Origin: an uncultured Candidatus Saccharibacteria bacterium
GTDB taxonomy: Bacteria > Patescibacteriota > Saccharimonadia > Saccharimonadales > Saccharimonadaceae
Reading direction: 5' to 3'
DNA: 64,000 nt
Assembly: GCA_946186455.1 (NCBI GenBank)
Contig: CAMHNK010000002.1
Location: 186-64,185, forward strand
Position 1 is the stretch's first letter. The number at the start of each line of letters is the position of its first letter. Of the stretch, positions 5,066-11,004 are shown one piece after another. The position numbers were made by a program, and so were the translations under genes. The notes beneath the pieces were generated by a model. It saw only the letters and a program-made list of their open reading frames with translations. It did no database searches and was not told the origin of the DNA.

Positions 5066-6400
5066 TTATATTCCTTTCAACACGCTATCCGTGTATGCAT
5101 ACGTCGGCCCATACGGGCTAGAAGAATTCGTATATTCAGACAGGCTGTATGCCTGTGCACGCGGGCGATAGGCTCTCGAACCTCTACCAGAACCACAGCT
5201 CGCCTCGCCAATAATAATCTGATTTTTTGACTCGTCAATTCCGAGCACGATTCCGGTATGGTTAGCCCAACCATCCGCCGAACCACTAACTGGTCCTGAG
5301 CTCATAATAGCATACATTCTCGGTGTTCTGCCACCGTTTTTCAGCTGTGGGTGCGATGCTAAATTCTGGCTCACAGCCTGTGAACCCTGAATTAGTGCCA
5401 CGCCATTTGGCCCCAGCGTCGTATAACGATTCAAAAACCATTTCGTAAAGGCAGAACAGTTATTAAGCGAACCACTCGGGCATCCCACATCTTCAATCGA
5501 AACACCCTGGAATGTCACCGTACCGTGTTGCATTTTGTCCGATTCTCTTGCATACGCTTCCATGAATGATTGTGCCTGCGCGAGGCTCATCCCACCACTC
5601 ACGAGTTTACCTTCTGTTACGGCCTGATCTTCCTCGGCTTTAGTATCCTCTTTTTTACTCACCACGCAAGTCGTCATTTCGTCCATGCCGACATCCGAAC
5701 CATCACCACCGGCCGCATTCTTGGCCGCATTTTCATACCATTCTGGATATTCTTCCGCGAGTTCCTTGGATGACTTCCAGCCTTCTTGCTGTGATAGATT
5801 CTCAATCATAGAGATTAAAGAACTAAGCTTCGAAACATAATTCGGGTCGGTCGCATACCCTGCATTCTTAATTGCCTGTGCGTAAGCATATGGATTCGTA
5901 ATTGTCTCGCCCTGGAACACGCCGTGATTCCGGTAAGTTGGCGTGTTTACGATGTTTTTATAATAACCTTCCCAACCTTCCATTGGCGTTGCATATGAAA
6001 ATGCATTGTCTGGATTGCTATCAAACGCCCCGATACCAAAGAAATTATTTCTTTCGCGTGCAAAATACGAAGTACCCGATGCCGACTCCAAAATCCCCTG
6101 TGCCATCACTGTTTCCCAAGGAATTCCGTAATTGATACTAAGCGTCACCGCGACGTCATGGTAGGTCTTAATAAAACTCACTTGCGTACCGTCCGGCTCG
6201 CCACCTAGCACCCCACCATCGGCTGACGCACTTACGCAACTACCGTATGGATCATAAAACAGGATATTATTATCCGCATAAATCGAGAGTTCATCTTCGG
6301 TCATTTTATTCTTAGTTGCAAACGTACCGGTCGTAAAAACCAGGCTCGTTCCGAGAATGCACGTAATCAGAAATAATTTACGCTTCATCACTTTGAGCAT
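5066..6400 (-). CDS. secreted cell-wall hydrolase: GH73 glucosaminidase + CHAP-like amidase
   Basis: Signal peptide; AQGILES, NNFFGI, GYATDPNY (GH73); NCSAF..WF, HTGIV, IGEA (CHAP-like Cys/His/Glu). Start may be 6388. Confidence 0.82.
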   Translation of the reverse strand: MLKVMKRKLFLITCILGTSLVFTTGTFATKNKMTEDELSIYADNNILFYDPYGSCVSASADGGVLGGEPDGTQVSFIKTYHDVAVTLSINYGIPWETVMAQGILESASGTSYFARERNNFFGIGAFDSNPDNAFSYATPMEGWEGYYKNIVNTPTYRNHGVFQGETITNPYAYAQAIKNAGYATDPNYVSKLSSLISMIENLSQQEGWKSSKELAEEYPEWYENAAKNAAGGDGSDVGMDEMTTCVVSKKEDTKAEEDQAVTEGKLVSGGMSLAQAQSFMEAYARESDKMQHGTVTFQGVSIEDVGCPSGSLNNCSAFTKWFLNRYTTLGPNGVALIQGSQAVSQNLASHPQLKNGGRTPRMYAIMSSGPVSGSADGWANHTGIVLGIDESKNQIIIGEASCGSGRGSRAYRPRAQAYSLSEYTNSSSPYGPTYAYTDSVLKGI

Positions 6401-7472
6401 AACAATTTTCTAAGAAATTATCAATAAACCCGTCTATCTCACCATCTAAAACCGCATCCGGATCGGTCTCTTCATACCCGGTGCGCGTATCTTTTACTAA
6501 CTTATAAGGTTGCAGTACATAATTTCGAATTTGCTGCCCCCAGCCAGCAGACTCACCTGCGCGGAGCTTATCAATAGATTCCGCGTGTTGTTCTAACTGC
6601 ATCTGCACGAGCTTACCGCGGAGAATTTCCATCGCTTTTTCCTTGTTCTGTAGCTGCGAACGCTCGTTTTGAATCGCTACCACGGTATTGGTCGGAAGGT
6701 GCGTAATGCGTACTGCCGAATTTGTCGTGTTTACACTCTGCCCACCATGTCCACCGGAATGATAAACATCAATCCGAAGGTCTTTTTCGTCAATTTTTAC
6801 ATCCGTATCGGCCTTAATCACCGGCAAGACTTCGACTAACGCAAACGAAGTCTGACGGAGATTATTTGCGTTAAATGGCGAAAGCCTTACTAATCGATGT
6901 ACGCCGTGTTCAGACTTGAGTAGTCCATACGCGTTCGCACCAGTTACTTCATATACGCCCGTTTTAATCCCGGCTTCTTCACCGGCCACCCGCTCGAGAG
7001 TCTGCACTTTAAAGCCTTTTCTTTCAAAGAATCTAAGATACATGCGTTCCAGCATTCCAGACCAGTCCATCGCTTCCGTTCCACCGGCTCCCGCCGTGAT
7101 GCGGATAATTGCATCTTTATCGTCGTACGGCCCGTTAAAACGAAGCGCCTTCTTTAAATCCTGAAAATTTTTTTCCATCGCCTCGACTTGCCCGGCAATC
7201 TCTTCCTTTAGGCTCTCGTCAGACATTTGGGTTAATTCTTTCAAATCTTCAATCTGGGTTTTAAGCAGCCGCCACGGTTGGGTTTCTTCCGTCACTCTCG
7301 CGAGTTCCTGATTTTTACTCGTCGCTTCCTCAATATTGTGCCAAATTTCTGGCACCGCCACTTCTTCTTCAAGCTTCGCCATCTTAGCGAGTTTATCTTC
7401 AATTTTTAGCCGTTCATAAGCCACCAAAAAATCTTTCTCAAGGTCTGTCAGTCGTTTCTGTAATTCCTGCAT
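6378..7472 (-). CDS. prfB: peptide chain release factor 2
   Basis: SPF tripeptide (RLSPFN), GGQ, GAGGTEA; one uninterrupted ORF. Confidence 0.97.
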   Translation of the reverse strand: MQELQKRLTDLEKDFLVAYERLKIEDKLAKMAKLEEEVAVPEIWHNIEEATSKNQELARVTEETQPWRLLKTQIEDLKELTQMSDESLKEEIAGQVEAMEKNFQDLKKALRFNGPYDDKDAIIRITAGAGGTEAMDWSGMLERMYLRFFERKGFKVQTLERVAGEEAGIKTGVYEVTGANAYGLLKSEHGVHRLVRLSPFNANNLRQTSFALVEVLPVIKADTDVKIDEKDLRIDVYHSGGHGGQSVNTTNSAVRITHLPTNTVVAIQNERSQLQNKEKAMEILRGKLVQMQLEQHAESIDKLRAGESAGWGQQIRNYVLQPYKLVKDTRTGYEETDPDAVLDGEIDGFIDNFLENCYAQSDEA

Positions 7473-8291: not shown

Positions 8292-8320
8292 TTGACTTTT
8301 TTAAGCATATGTGCTATAAT
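8292..8320 (+). promoter_or_regulatory. sigma70 promoter
   Basis: TTGACT-17nt-TATAAT with extended TG. Confidence 0.7.
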
Positions 8321-8354
8321 TAAAGCATCGTTCTGTCTCTAGGGGGTGGTTACT

Positions 8355-8630
8355 ATGAACGAGAAGTTTTATAAGCCCTTCGATGCGGAGAGTTTCGTCA
8401 AGAATCTGGACAAAGATGTCTTCCATGAGGAATTCATCAACAAACTTGGTCGCACTCTGGCGTTTTCGAGGCTCCGTTGTGGTGGTGAGCATCATCTTAC
8501 CGGTGAAGAATGGGCTGTGATTGAGCGTGGTTACCGCGCCCTTGGCGTCCCGATGGTCCTTTCGACCAGTGAATCCATCGAATTTGCCCATGCCCTTACG
8601 GCTCGTGCCGTCACTACTGCCCACTTTTAG
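8355..8630 (+). CDS. small hypothetical protein (about 91 aa)
   Basis: Has own promoter, G-rich SD and downstream terminator; ATG 8355 preferred over GTG 8346. Confidence 0.65.
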   Translation: MNEKFYKPFDAESFVKNLDKDVFHEEFINKLGRTLAFSRLRCGGEHHLTGEEWAVIERGYRALGVPMVLSTSESIEFAHALTARAVTTAHF

Positions 8631-8637
8631 TGGGTCC

Positions 8638-8664
8638 GGCTCGCTCTTATAGCGGGCCTTTTTT
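8638..8664 (+). terminator. intrinsic terminator
   Basis: GGCTCGCT-cttat-AGCGGGCC followed by T6. Confidence 0.7.
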
Positions 8665-8671
8665 ATTCCTT

Positions 8672-8709
8672 AAAAAGCAGAGAGGCCCCTATAAAAGGGG
8701 CCATTCTCT
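8672..8709 (-). terminator. intrinsic terminator of the 84-aa gene
   Basis: AGAGA..GGCCCCT/AGGGGCC.TCTCT hairpin followed by T5 on the minus strand. Confidence 0.55.
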
Positions 8710-8962
8710 ACCGTGTGAGATGCCAGGACAAATCACTCGAGTTGAACTCGAGTCGCATTTGCTCCCGACCAACCAGAATGTCGAAAATGTGAAGCGTGGC
8801 TTGCCCCGCGAAGTGAATATGGGTGCGGAGCAGCTCTGTCACTTCAGTTTCCGTTTGTCCACGTCGCCTGAAAGTGAGAGGCTGGCATGGCGTCATTTCG
8901 TAGCTGAAAAGCGCCATCACTTCGACTTGTTCTGTTTTGTTGTTTTTGTTAAAGTTTTTCAT
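8708..8962 (-). CDS. small beta-rich protein resembling those found beside DinB/PolY genes (P..F.....HIF....L.F....L.W.L)
   Basis: 84 aa ORF with AAGGAG SD; family resemblance is from memory only. Confidence 0.6.
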   Translation of the reverse strand: MKNFNKNNKTEQVEVMALFSYEMTPCQPLTFRRRGQTETEVTELLRTHIHFAGQATLHIFDILVGREQMRLEFNSSDLSWHLTR

Positions 8963-9100
8963 AAAAGACTCCTTTAATTAAATTATTAGAGTCATTTATG
9001 TGAGCCTCTGTTTTATTGGCTCGTAGTAATAAGGCAAAATGACAATACCTTACTACCTTAAACTTTTCTCTTTACCAGTGACCGAAGTATAGCAAGAGAC
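8963..9100 (-). promoter_or_regulatory. structured 5' UTR: four hairpins plus potential pseudoknot, SD sequestered
   Basis: Stems at 9067-9099 (cUUCGg loop), 9026-9056, 9002-9022, 8967-8993; loop GUCAUUU complementary to AAAUGAC. Confidence 0.6.
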
Positions 9101-9106
9101 ACTTCT

Positions 9107-9128
9107 ATTTTACCACATGTGGTATAAT
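9107..9128. promoter_or_regulatory. back-to-back extended -10 promoters forming a 22-bp near-palindrome
   Basis: ATTTTACCACATGTGGTATAAT = TGTGGTAAAAT (minus) and TGTGGTATAAT (plus). Confidence 0.65.
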
Positions 9129-9167
9129 AGTAACCCTGGGAGAACATTAAAAAAGGAGGTGGTTGAT

Positions 9168-10013
9168 ATGGAGAGAGCAGTCTCTGCTATCGATGACCTG
9201 AAAAAGCTTGGTGATAGGTTAATAGTATTCGAAGATGATGCTACAAATCCGCCGTCGCTTACCATTGTGAAATTTCCCGAAAATCGCGGGACCATCATCC
9301 AAAGGGGCGTCCTTTATGATTGGTATGGTCGCGAAGTCGAGCTCGGAGAAGGCATTAAGCGTATCGTTGAGCCATTTGGGCATTATACCGACGGTATCGA
9401 CCTGACGCATTGTCACGACAATTTCGTCGTGGAGCTAAAAGACGGCACTTTTGCAATTAGTGGCATTAAATATTATCGCTTGCCAAGATCGGAATGTTTA
9501 GGCTATTCTGGCCTAAAATATGCCATCACAGGCGGTGCCTTAAAAATGGTGCCACACATGTACCTAGATGAATCACTTCCGCGTTATGAAGAAATCAAAT
9601 TAGACGCTCTTAAAGACACTTGTTTTGAAATCTTCAAACGTTGGAACGGTCCTCATGAGTACGCTCTTGGCATCAATCCAATTTTCTATGGTTCGGTCGA
9701 AAAAGGCCTCACGCATCTTATTTGCGGCGAACTTGCCGGCGGTAATGGCAGATGTTGGTTTTCTATCGCAGAGAACCGCGAAATACTCTTAAAAACCACC
9801 AAGACTAAACTCGGTCGCATGGAAGAACCCCCACTTTATCTCAGCATGGACGAAATCTTTGGCGAAATCACGGTCTCAGAAGACGGTAACAAACTTACTG
9901 CTAGAGTACCTAAAAAGCATTTTGACAAAGAATCGATTCGTATCTCTACGGACGCTGAAGTTTTGGGGCACATGGAAGAGTCCCACTTTTGGTGGTACCT
10001 TGACCCAATCTAA
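9168..10013 (+). CDS. hypothetical protein (about 281 aa)
   Basis: Long ORF; AGGAGG SD supports ATG 9168; terminator downstream; no motif recognised. Confidence 0.7.
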   Translation: MERAVSAIDDLKKLGDRLIVFEDDATNPPSLTIVKFPENRGTIIQRGVLYDWYGREVELGEGIKRIVEPFGHYTDGIDLTHCHDNFVVELKDGTFAISGIKYYRLPRSECLGYSGLKYAITGGALKMVPHMYLDESLPRYEEIKLDALKDTCFEIFKRWNGPHEYALGINPIFYGSVEKGLTHLICGELAGGNGRCWFSIAENREILLKTTKTKLGRMEEPPLYLSMDEIFGEITVSEDGNKLTARVPKKHFDKESIRISTDAEVLGHMEESHFWWYLDPI

Positions 10014-10065: not shown

Positions 10066-11004
10066 ATGATTTGGAACGATTTACATAGACCGTTTTTGAT
10101 TTTAGCTCCGATGGAAGGCGTCACCGACGTGATTTTTCGTCAAGTCGTCGCGCGCGCCGGCCGCCCGGATCTCTTTTTTACGGAATTCACCAATGTTTCT
10201 AGCTATGCTTCCGAAAAGGGCCGTGATAATGCCCTCGAACGCCTCGAAATCGCTCCTTCCGACTCGCCGATTATCGCTCAGATTTGGGGTAAAAACCCCG
10301 AGCATTTCGCTAAAACTTGCGAAGCTCTTGAAAGCCTCGGCTTTGTCGGCGTCGATCTAAACTTCGGCTGCCCAGACAAACACGTCAACAAAGCCGGTGG
10401 TGGTGCTGCTATGATTAAAACTCCAGAGCTCGCCGTCGAATGTTTCCGCAATGCCGTGAGATCCACTAATCTCCCAGTTTCGATTAAAACTCGTCTCGGC
10501 TGGGCTAAACTCGACGAATACGAAGATTGGCTATCTACTCTCTTAAATGAGCATCCGGCTGCACTTACTGTTCATCTCCGCACTAAAAAAGAAATGAGCA
10601 AAGTTCCGGCTCACTATGAATTAATTCCAGAGATTATTAAACTTCGCGACACGCTTAGCCCGGAAACTAAACTAATCATTAATGGTGATATTAAAGATAG
10701 GACCGCTGCACTTAAACTTCACGAAACTTATCCTGAGGTTGATGGTTTCATGATTGGCCGCGGCGTCTTCGCTAATCCATATTGTTTTACCGATCACACG
10801 CCAACTCGCGAAGAGCTCATGGATTTACTCCGTTTTCACCTTGATTTACACGAAGCCGAATCGAAGAAGCATTATCTTTCTTACGAACCATTAAAGCATT
10901 TCTTCAAGATTTACATCAACAACTTCCCTGGCGCCTCGGACCTCCGCGCTAAACTGATGGAAACCCATTCCGTACCTGAAGCGCGTGCTATAATAGAGTC
11001 ATGA
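10066..11004 (+). CDS. dus: tRNA-dihydrouridine synthase
   Basis: LAPMEGVTD, DLNFGCP, SIKTRLG, H.RT, NGDI, MIGRG; start reassigned to ATG 10066. Confidence 0.93.
   Translation: MIWNDLHRPFLILAPMEGVTDVIFRQVVARAGRPDLFFTEFTNVSSYASEKGRDNALERLEIAPSDSPIIAQIWGKNPEHFAKTCEALESLGFVGVDLNFGCPDKHVNKAGGGAAMIKTPELAVECFRNAVRSTNLPVSIKTRLGWAKLDEYEDWLSTLLNEHPAALTVHLRTKKEMSKVPAHYELIPEIIKLRDTLSPETKLIINGDIKDRTAALKLHETYPEVDGFMIGRGVFANPYCFTDHTPTREELMDLLRFHLDLHEAESKKHYLSYEPLKHFFKIYINNFPGASDLRAKLMETHSVPEARAIIES

Follow-up and report, generated by a model that had tools for sequence, protein, structure and literature searches.

The locus described here raises a simple question. On the minus strand of the genome of an uncultured Candidatus Saccharibacteria bacterium, about 140 nt upstream of an open reading frame for an 84-residue protein contain no other credible gene; is this stretch a regulatory RNA and, if so, how would it act? 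The sequence is from assembly GCA_946186455.1 (0.71 Mb, 83% complete), contig CAMHNK010000002.1, of which a stretch of 64,000 nt (the window) was analysed. Close protein relatives are labelled Candidatus Saccharibacteria in their source records. An earlier note on this DNA had described a riboswitch-like leader, a description that is supported by conservation, covariation and sequestration of the start site; a role for an effector is what we infer. A conserved, covarying and strand-specific RNA structure lies at the 5' end of the mRNA and sequesters the start site. The reading that we favour, and that we hold to be evenly balanced between right and wrong, is that of a cis-acting translational leader of about 140 nt on a monocistronic mRNA, OFF by default and switched ON by an effector.

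Structure of the leader

The elements of the leader and of the gene that it precedes are as follows.

9107..9115, minus strand: extended -10 element TGgTAAAAT (sequence reading and comparison of homologous leaders)
near 9101-9099, minus strand: predicted transcription start (from the position of the -10 box)
9067..9099, minus strand: P1, the 5'-terminal hairpin (single-sequence fold; the stem covaries)
9087-9082, minus strand: P1 cap C(UUCG)G (sequence reading)
9091-9076, minus strand: P1 apical motif UAUAC-UUCG-GUCACUG (fold and comparison)
9058..9066, minus strand: J1/2, A-rich linker AAAGUUUAA (GA.AAA core conserved at >=97%)
9025..9057, minus strand: P2 hairpin, 12 bp including a terminal G.U, 9-nt loop UUGUCAUUU (folds independently)
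9037..9043, minus strand: putative pseudoknot 5' strand GUCAUUU, in the P2 loop (invariant in 81/81 distinct leaders)
9002..9022, minus strand: P3 hairpin GAGCC/GGCUC with an A-rich loop (99.8% of cells paired)
8991..8997, minus strand: putative pseudoknot 3' strand AAAUGAC (six of seven bases inside the 5' half of P4)
8960..9000, minus strand: P4 sequestering hairpin, CAUAAA/UUUAUG and GACUCU/GGAGUC (folds; 93-95% of cells paired)
8974-8969, minus strand: Shine-Dalgarno (SD) sequence AAGGAG, within P4 (sequence reading)
8962-8960, minus strand: AUG start codon, within P4 (sequence reading)
8708..8962, minus strand: controlled gene, 84-residue protein (open reading frame; homologues)
8684..8702, minus strand: intrinsic terminator 3' of the gene (terminator prediction)

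The window leader folds with a minimum free energy of -45.4 kcal/mol, compared with -25.1 +/- 3.2 kcal/mol for its dinucleotide shuffles (z = -6.36), none of the 200 of which was as good. Most of the elements were found as the earlier note had drawn them: P1 with its cUUCGg loop (9099-9067, cap at 9087-9082), P3 as GAGCC/GGCUC (9022-9002), the 11 bp of P2, which fall inside a 12-bp stem when the terminal G.U is counted, and the complementary strands GUCAUUU and AAAUGAC, exactly at 9037-9043 and 8991-8997. P4 required correction. It had been described as GACUC/GAGUC covering part of the SD, and it does cover AAGGAG, but its extent was understated: the hairpin extends outward via CAUAAA/UUUAUG, so that the start codon (8962-8960) is sequestered as well. 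The overlap claimed between the pseudoknot target and P4 is likewise real, but it comprises six of the seven target bases rather than three.

The structure has no counterpart in Rfam 15. A search of the whole window with Rfam 15 gave only tRNAs at the gathering threshold, and a permissive search of 8600-9300 (E <= 10) gave only weak matches, on the other strand or to terminator-like hairpins, all far below gathering. The impression that no known riboswitch class is present therefore held in Rfam 15, both at gathering and at E <= 10. The permissive matches (plus-strand terminator-like hairpins at 8603-8666, E of 0.009-0.09, and miRNA and snoRNA models) were dismissed as chance-level. A literature search on Saccharibacteria riboswitches, DUF6504 and translesion riboswitches found nothing relevant. 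Switch-like leaders are thus known as a kind; this RNA family is represented neither in Rfam 15 nor in the literature searched.

Conservation and covariation

The 84-residue protein is present in 20 of 36 genomes of the same genus, and the leader was found at all 20 loci with an intact upstream region. Each of these 20 leaders, folded alone, yields the identical order P1-P2-P3-P4. A covariance model built from them was then run on wider genome sets and located the leader in 100 of 150 same-genus genomes, as a single copy in all but three. No match to the full leader model was obtained in 148 genomes from 119 other genera of the order; a weak match of the model in the genome G109 (E = 2.9e-4) proved on reading through not to be a leader.

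Covariation was assessed on 81 distinct leader sequences, using single-sequence folds and the covariance-model alignment. These replaced RNAalifold on a plain MAFFT alignment, in which P2 was out of register and the pseudoknot appeared as a nested helix. Across the 81 sequences, 84% of cells hold standard pairs, against 28-44% when the partners are slid, and 220 cells have changed on both sides, against 111 +/- 9 in shuffles. The double changes in P1 affect six of its ten stem pairs; the A-U and C-G pairs of its apical part are invariant. The covariance model mis-registers the inner part of P2 (47% paired), and P2 was judged by independent folding instead: in 81/81 leaders the segment alone forms a hairpin of 8-13 bp with GUCAUUU unpaired, and 60 distinct stem sequences carry this one invariant loop. 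P3 is nearly invariant, with one compensatory change from A-U to U-A (GUGCC/GGCAC) and two G.U variants. In P4 (93-95% paired) the changes are mostly one-sided, between G-C and G-U. Many unpaired bases outside P1 are invariant, the 12-nt CAUAAAUGACUC is invariant too, and most of the conservation in the leader falls outside the sequestering helix P4. The upstream regions of homologues therefore bear out the leader, through its presence in 100 of 150 genomes and the strong covariation of P1 and P2. What is seen is a conserved structured 5'-UTR domain with covariation, which is one part of the generic description of a riboswitch.

The constraint acts on the minus-strand RNA, as judged by two features: G.U pairs are frequent in the stems of the 81 sequences, and in 75 of 80 leaders the sense strand folds more stably than the antisense (-44.4 versus -34.0 kcal/mol).

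Two further pairings or reading frames were considered and set aside. J1/2 in the window (AAAGUUU, 9058-9066) can pair with codons 2-4 (AAACUUU, 8951-8957), which would close a domain of P2 to P4; this helix is confined to the MKNFN subclade, to which the window belongs, rather than genus-wide, and its statistics are confounded by relatedness. A short upstream reading frame could start at the AUG in AAAUGAC; it has no SD and its length is not conserved.

Promoter, transcript and genomic setting

The extended -10 box TGgTAAAAT (9115-9107) ends 7 nt before position 9100. A -10-like hexamer with at least five of six matches lies upstream of P1 in 81/81 distinct homologous leaders, at a distance of 6-8 nt from hexamer end to P1 in 79 of them, and the extended TG is present in 66/81. 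The stems are thus expected to be transcribed, given that the hexamer directly precedes P1 in the homologous leaders. A consensus sigma-70 promoter scan reported nothing at the leader; the scan demands a -35 box, which is absent here. Transcription most likely begins 6-8 nt past the conserved extended -10 box, so that P1 would form the extreme 5' end of the RNA. The proposed long leader of about 138 nt agrees well with the 6-8 nt spacing in 79/81 leaders, with the start placed by that spacing. The intrinsic terminator after the gene (8702-8684) indicates that the unit is monocistronic, and a GC-rich hairpin with a T run follows the stop codon of the small gene at most same-genus loci.

A long leader had been thought to stand out in a window of mostly leaderless genes. 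This is roughly consistent with a crude test on 62 open frames of at least 150 codons: taking in each frame the first start that showed a recognisable signal, 30 were preceded by a -10-like box at 4-9 nt and 19 by an SD.

Back to back with the -10 box of the leader is a second extended -10 box, TGgTATAAT, which serves a divergent plus-strand gene. The two boxes, TGTGGTAAAAT (minus) and TGTGGTATAAT (plus), overlap in a 14-bp palindrome, TACCACATGTGGTA (9107-9128), which could be a shared operator. The palindrome is not conserved with the leader in other genomes and so belongs to this divergent gene pair. The divergent gene (9165-10013, plus strand) encodes 282 residues without a Pfam match; its start is most likely the ATG at 9165 behind AAGGAGGTG rather than the ATG at 9117 of the longest listed frame.

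This arrangement bears on the possibility that the stems represent an independent small RNA, chance, or DNA palindromes (operators) unrelated to the gene. A palindrome does stand between the two divergent promoters, but it lies upstream of the leader and does not travel with it. There is no terminator between P3 and the gene. The leader, for its part, always precedes the same gene of 82-85 residues, in a fixed register to its SD and AUG, and covarying stems with G.U pairs fit RNA rather than protein-bound DNA. We disfavour this explanation and consider it very improbable indeed.

The leader and its gene belong to an island of unknown genes, bounded on one side by prfB (6378-7472, minus strand) and on the other by a dus-like gene that ends at 11004, and the flanks of the unit vary among genomes of the genus. 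At 8301-8665, frames overlap on opposite strands (107 residues minus, 94 residues plus). The plus-strand frame at 8346-8630 is probably the real gene there, convergent with the 84-residue gene, because it ends at a good terminator (8638-8658).

Proposed competition between P4 and a pseudoknot

The hairpin had been proposed to sequester the SD, and this pairing proved to be conserved: besides the 93-95% pairing of P4, the AUG has a pairing probability of 0.97-1.00 in 80/80 full leaders. The median energy of P4 is -12.2 kcal/mol.

That a pseudoknot competes with P4 was a further claim of the earlier note. The competition follows directly from the overlap of the strands, which would make the two structures mutually exclusive, but compensatory change in support of the pseudoknot itself is absent. 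All seven pairs are standard in 81/81 leaders and five are invariant. The two others vary only by A to G in the AAAUGAC strand, which leaves a U.G wobble in the pseudoknot; a changed base that also belongs to a P4 pair keeps a wobble in that hairpin too. Among the 81 leaders no compensatory double change occurs in these pairs, so that covariation cannot prove the pseudoknot. In the window sequence alone, 2.7% of mononucleotide shuffles show a perfect 7-nt complement of the P2 loop farther downstream; the single-sequence match is therefore only mildly unusual and its weight comes from conservation. The case for the pseudoknot is built on an invariant loop carried by a freely changing stem, on the invariant CAUAAAUGACUC and on analogy with the related leaders described below. 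It fits the data, short of proof by covariation.

The energetics of the switch were modelled with nearest-neighbour parameters, ignoring pseudoknot loop penalties and tertiary contacts. When both pseudoknot strands are blocked, the pairing of the AUG drops to a median of 0.32 and that of the SD only from 0.75 to 0.66, which suggests that pseudoknot formation would, in the model, mainly free the AUG rather than the SD. Blocking the strands costs approximately 10.9 kcal/mol and the 7-bp pseudoknot duplex returns about -5.0 kcal/mol. The OFF state should therefore dominate unless some 6 kcal/mol are added or the pseudoknot is trapped co-transcriptionally.

On the favoured reading, the ground state would be OFF, with P4 pairing both the SD and the start codon. 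If the P2 loop GUCAUUU paired with AAAUGAC, which occupies the central part of the 5' strand of P4, the hairpin would be broken up and the start codon released. A putative effector would bind the conserved core of P1, P2 and P3, stabilize the pseudoknot and so turn translation ON; an effector is called for because the pseudoknot state is approximately 6 kcal/mol worse than P4 by the nearest-neighbour estimate.

The leader might also work with no effector. P1 would then be a 5' stabilizer, P4 would lower translation or melt as a thermometer, and the pseudoknot would be absent or static. P1 does stand at the predicted 5' end, where known stabilizer hairpins are found, P4 alone explains the sequestration of AUG and SD, and the pseudoknot is the element that covariation leaves unproven. 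Such a leader would, however, have no need for an invariant 7-nt P2 loop, for the invariant 12-nt segment or for a conserved P3, nor would it explain why the P2 stem varies freely and its loop never does. A hairpin of about -12 kcal/mol is also judged strong for an RNA thermometer, and the related leaders swap the SD hairpin for a terminator and retain the long-range pairing. We therefore regard an effector-free leader as improbable, and the effector-opened switch as the better account.

The 84-residue protein and the Y-family polymerase

The protein has no match in Pfam or NCBIfam. The YolD-like family PF08863 was not matched at E <= 1 by the window protein and 22 relatives, nor at E <= 0.1 by 85 diverse relatives. 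The window protein also has no match to DUF6504 (PF20114), to which 17 of 85 distant relatives match weakly (best E of 1.7e-5), and DUF6504 occurs in 16% of the proteins in the nearest named Atlas cluster; from these sequence likenesses the protein appears to be a distant relative of DUF6504. Its AlphaFold2 model is all-beta with seven strands (pLDDT 90). Nothing informative came from a PDB sequence search, Foldseek or VIA-align, the best structural match having a Z of 6.1 to a generic, cystatin-like beta-sheet.

A family profile search found the small protein in 208 of 401 genomes of the order (a tally that includes the unpublished genome G412). At 26 of 28 loci from other genera, the next gene downstream on the same strand encodes a Y-family DNA polymerase. 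The earlier comparison of the protein with small proteins beside error-prone polymerases is thus upheld by the neighbourhood at these loci, but not by any match to the YolD family.

The window gene is not directly upstream of a same-strand IMS (PF00817) gene and is followed by its own terminator; the only IMS gene of this genome is on another contig. That gene (L026 625-1980, minus strand, equivalent to G000:C20) lacks an SD and carries a TAAAAT box 7 nt upstream of its ATG. To judge from these sequence signals, the Y-family polymerase gene of this genome looks leaderless and unlinked to the small gene. Among 36 genomes of the genus, 12 have both genes, eight only the small gene, ten only the polymerase gene and six neither. 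This independent occurrence makes a damage-response role in the genus uncertain. In two divergent members of the genus (G019 and G024) the polymerase gene is 84-90 nt downstream of the small gene.

In some families of other genera a short Peptidase_S24 (UmuD-like) frame adjoins the homologue of the small protein, as at these loci:

G281:C1:627918-628469: S24 frame beside the small-protein homologue
G216:C2:120287-120819: S24 frame beside the small-protein homologue
G177:C26:17532-18083: S24 frame beside the small-protein homologue
G212:C5:52646-53560: S24 frame beside the small-protein homologue

The pairing of the S24 frame with the small gene suggests a three-part module of the umuD/umuC type. 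An S24 peptidase domain was not found in this genome or in two other sampled genomes of the family (a set that includes the unpublished G183). This genome does hold a LexA-type DNA-binding domain (PF01726, 68 bits, G000:C6:5030-5215), and the protein concerned may be a LexA-like repressor without a self-cleavage domain. The idea that RNA took over because LexA is absent is not supported: 40 of 41 same-genus genomes carry the LexA-type DNA-binding domain.

Related leaders in other genera

Long conserved non-coding regions also precede the small gene in other genera. These related leaders, at 12 other-genus loci, have no match in Rfam. They resemble the window leader in that the first gene behind them is of the same family and in that many carry the P1 apical motif, UAUAC-UNCG-GUCACUG. 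Most of them finish with an intrinsic terminator, and the operon behind them has two genes. The window type differs from them in being shorter, purely translational, confined to one genus and usually monocistronic. Several of the long leaders have a tRNA gene a few hundred bases farther upstream (L109 1115-1186, L106 2176-2247 and L127 2457-2528).

Two types were distinguished among the related leaders. The first (200-290 nt) combines a 5' helix with CCUCC and a larger P2, and many of its members show the P1 tip. Its internal GAACGG pairs with a CCGUUC that immediately precedes the intrinsic terminator, and this pairing covaries, as AGACGG:CCGUCU (three loci), AAGUGG:CCACUU and AAACGG:CCGUUU, in a sample of 16 loci in which the partner was picked by best fit and its position was constant. 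The second type has a GAAACG:CGUUUC pairing with its 3' strand overlapping the anti-SD strand UUCUCUA. A long-range pairing with its 3' strand at the expression platform is therefore common to all three types: in the window type and the second type this strand overlaps the 5' strand of the platform, and in the first type the terminator follows it immediately. This shared placement is the best available indirect support for the pseudoknot in the window.

Homology of the three leader types beyond P1 is plausible. From these comparisons we infer that the window leader may belong, as one variant, to a family of regulatory RNAs for this gene that spans the order. With at least three leader architectures on one gene family, the loci form a natural experiment in platform swapping, between a terminator and an SD hairpin. 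P1 has no secondary-structure connection to the switch between P4 and the pseudoknot, yet it is the only element common to most leader types.

Nature of the proposed effector

Our tentative first choice, possible though short of probable and slightly ahead of a protein, is that the effector would be a small molecule or ion, making the leader a true riboswitch. That it would be a protein is rather unlikely. The gene context points to no particular ligand.

In its explicit form, the protein alternative has a protein bind the P1 tip or the pseudoknot and shift the balance between P4 and pseudoknot, on the model of S15 on rpsO; the 84-residue product and partners of it, for instance the polymerase, are candidates. 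The one element common to most leader types is a compact hairpin, a typical protein site, and the gene family has several RNA architectures in front of it, a situation familiar from ribosomal-protein leaders. When the two genes of the operon are separated, it is the small gene that keeps the leader; in this genome the polymerase gene looks leaderless. However, the predicted ground state is already OFF, so that a repressor seems unnecessary, and an activating RNA-binding protein would be the rarer case. The model of the 84-residue protein has no recognisable RNA-binding fold, its best structural match being the generic beta-sheet at Z 6.1, and many of the invariant unpaired bases are outside P1. 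We consider protein binding of this kind unlikely, and a small molecule or ion remains our preferred effector.

A more far-reaching version of the small-molecule reading is distinctly unlikely. It takes the window leader and its longer relatives to be order-wide true riboswitches that would respond to a small molecule signalling, for instance, DNA damage or nucleotide-pool stress, and activate an accessory protein of translesion polymerase. If true, mutagenesis genes would be under RNA control, either in addition to LexA-type repression or in its place.

Significance and comparison with known systems

Saccharibacteria are ultrasmall epibionts with few known regulators, and we know of no native riboswitch-like control of DNA-damage tolerance genes described for them. 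The leader is a compact (about 140 nt), conserved, apparently default-OFF design that is directly testable. A new ligand or RNA-binding protein could come to light through it, and it could supply a native inducible element to a group with few genetic tools, a use for which a review of the field considers riboswitches promising (PMC11665869).

Several known systems share parts of this design. RNA thermometers (ROSE and fourU) have a hairpin that pairs the SD or AUG, as P4 does, and stabilizers (the ompA, aprE and ermC leaders) have a hairpin at the extreme 5' end, as P1 would be; neither class needs invariant distal loops or a pseudoknot partner. The E. coli rpsO leader, regulated by S15, shares an equilibrium between hairpin and pseudoknot over the translation start in which the factor-bound conformer sets expression. 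In rpsO, however, the protein-bound pseudoknot represses by trapping the ribosome, whereas in the window leader the pseudoknot would expose the start site, and the two sequences are unrelated.

The closest parallels are the translational ON riboswitches, which like the window leader have a structured domain upstream of the platform and mutually exclusive structures. In the add adenine riboswitch of Vibrio vulnificus the ligand removes an SD-sequestering helix; here, too, SD and AUG are hidden and the default is apparently OFF. The ZTP and fluoride riboswitches are pseudoknot-based ON switches, and here likewise a putative pseudoknot strand is shared with the platform. The window leader differs from all of these in its own architecture, with a 5' P1 that has a UNCG-capped internal loop, a predicted pseudoknot from the P2 loop to P4, and P3 between them.
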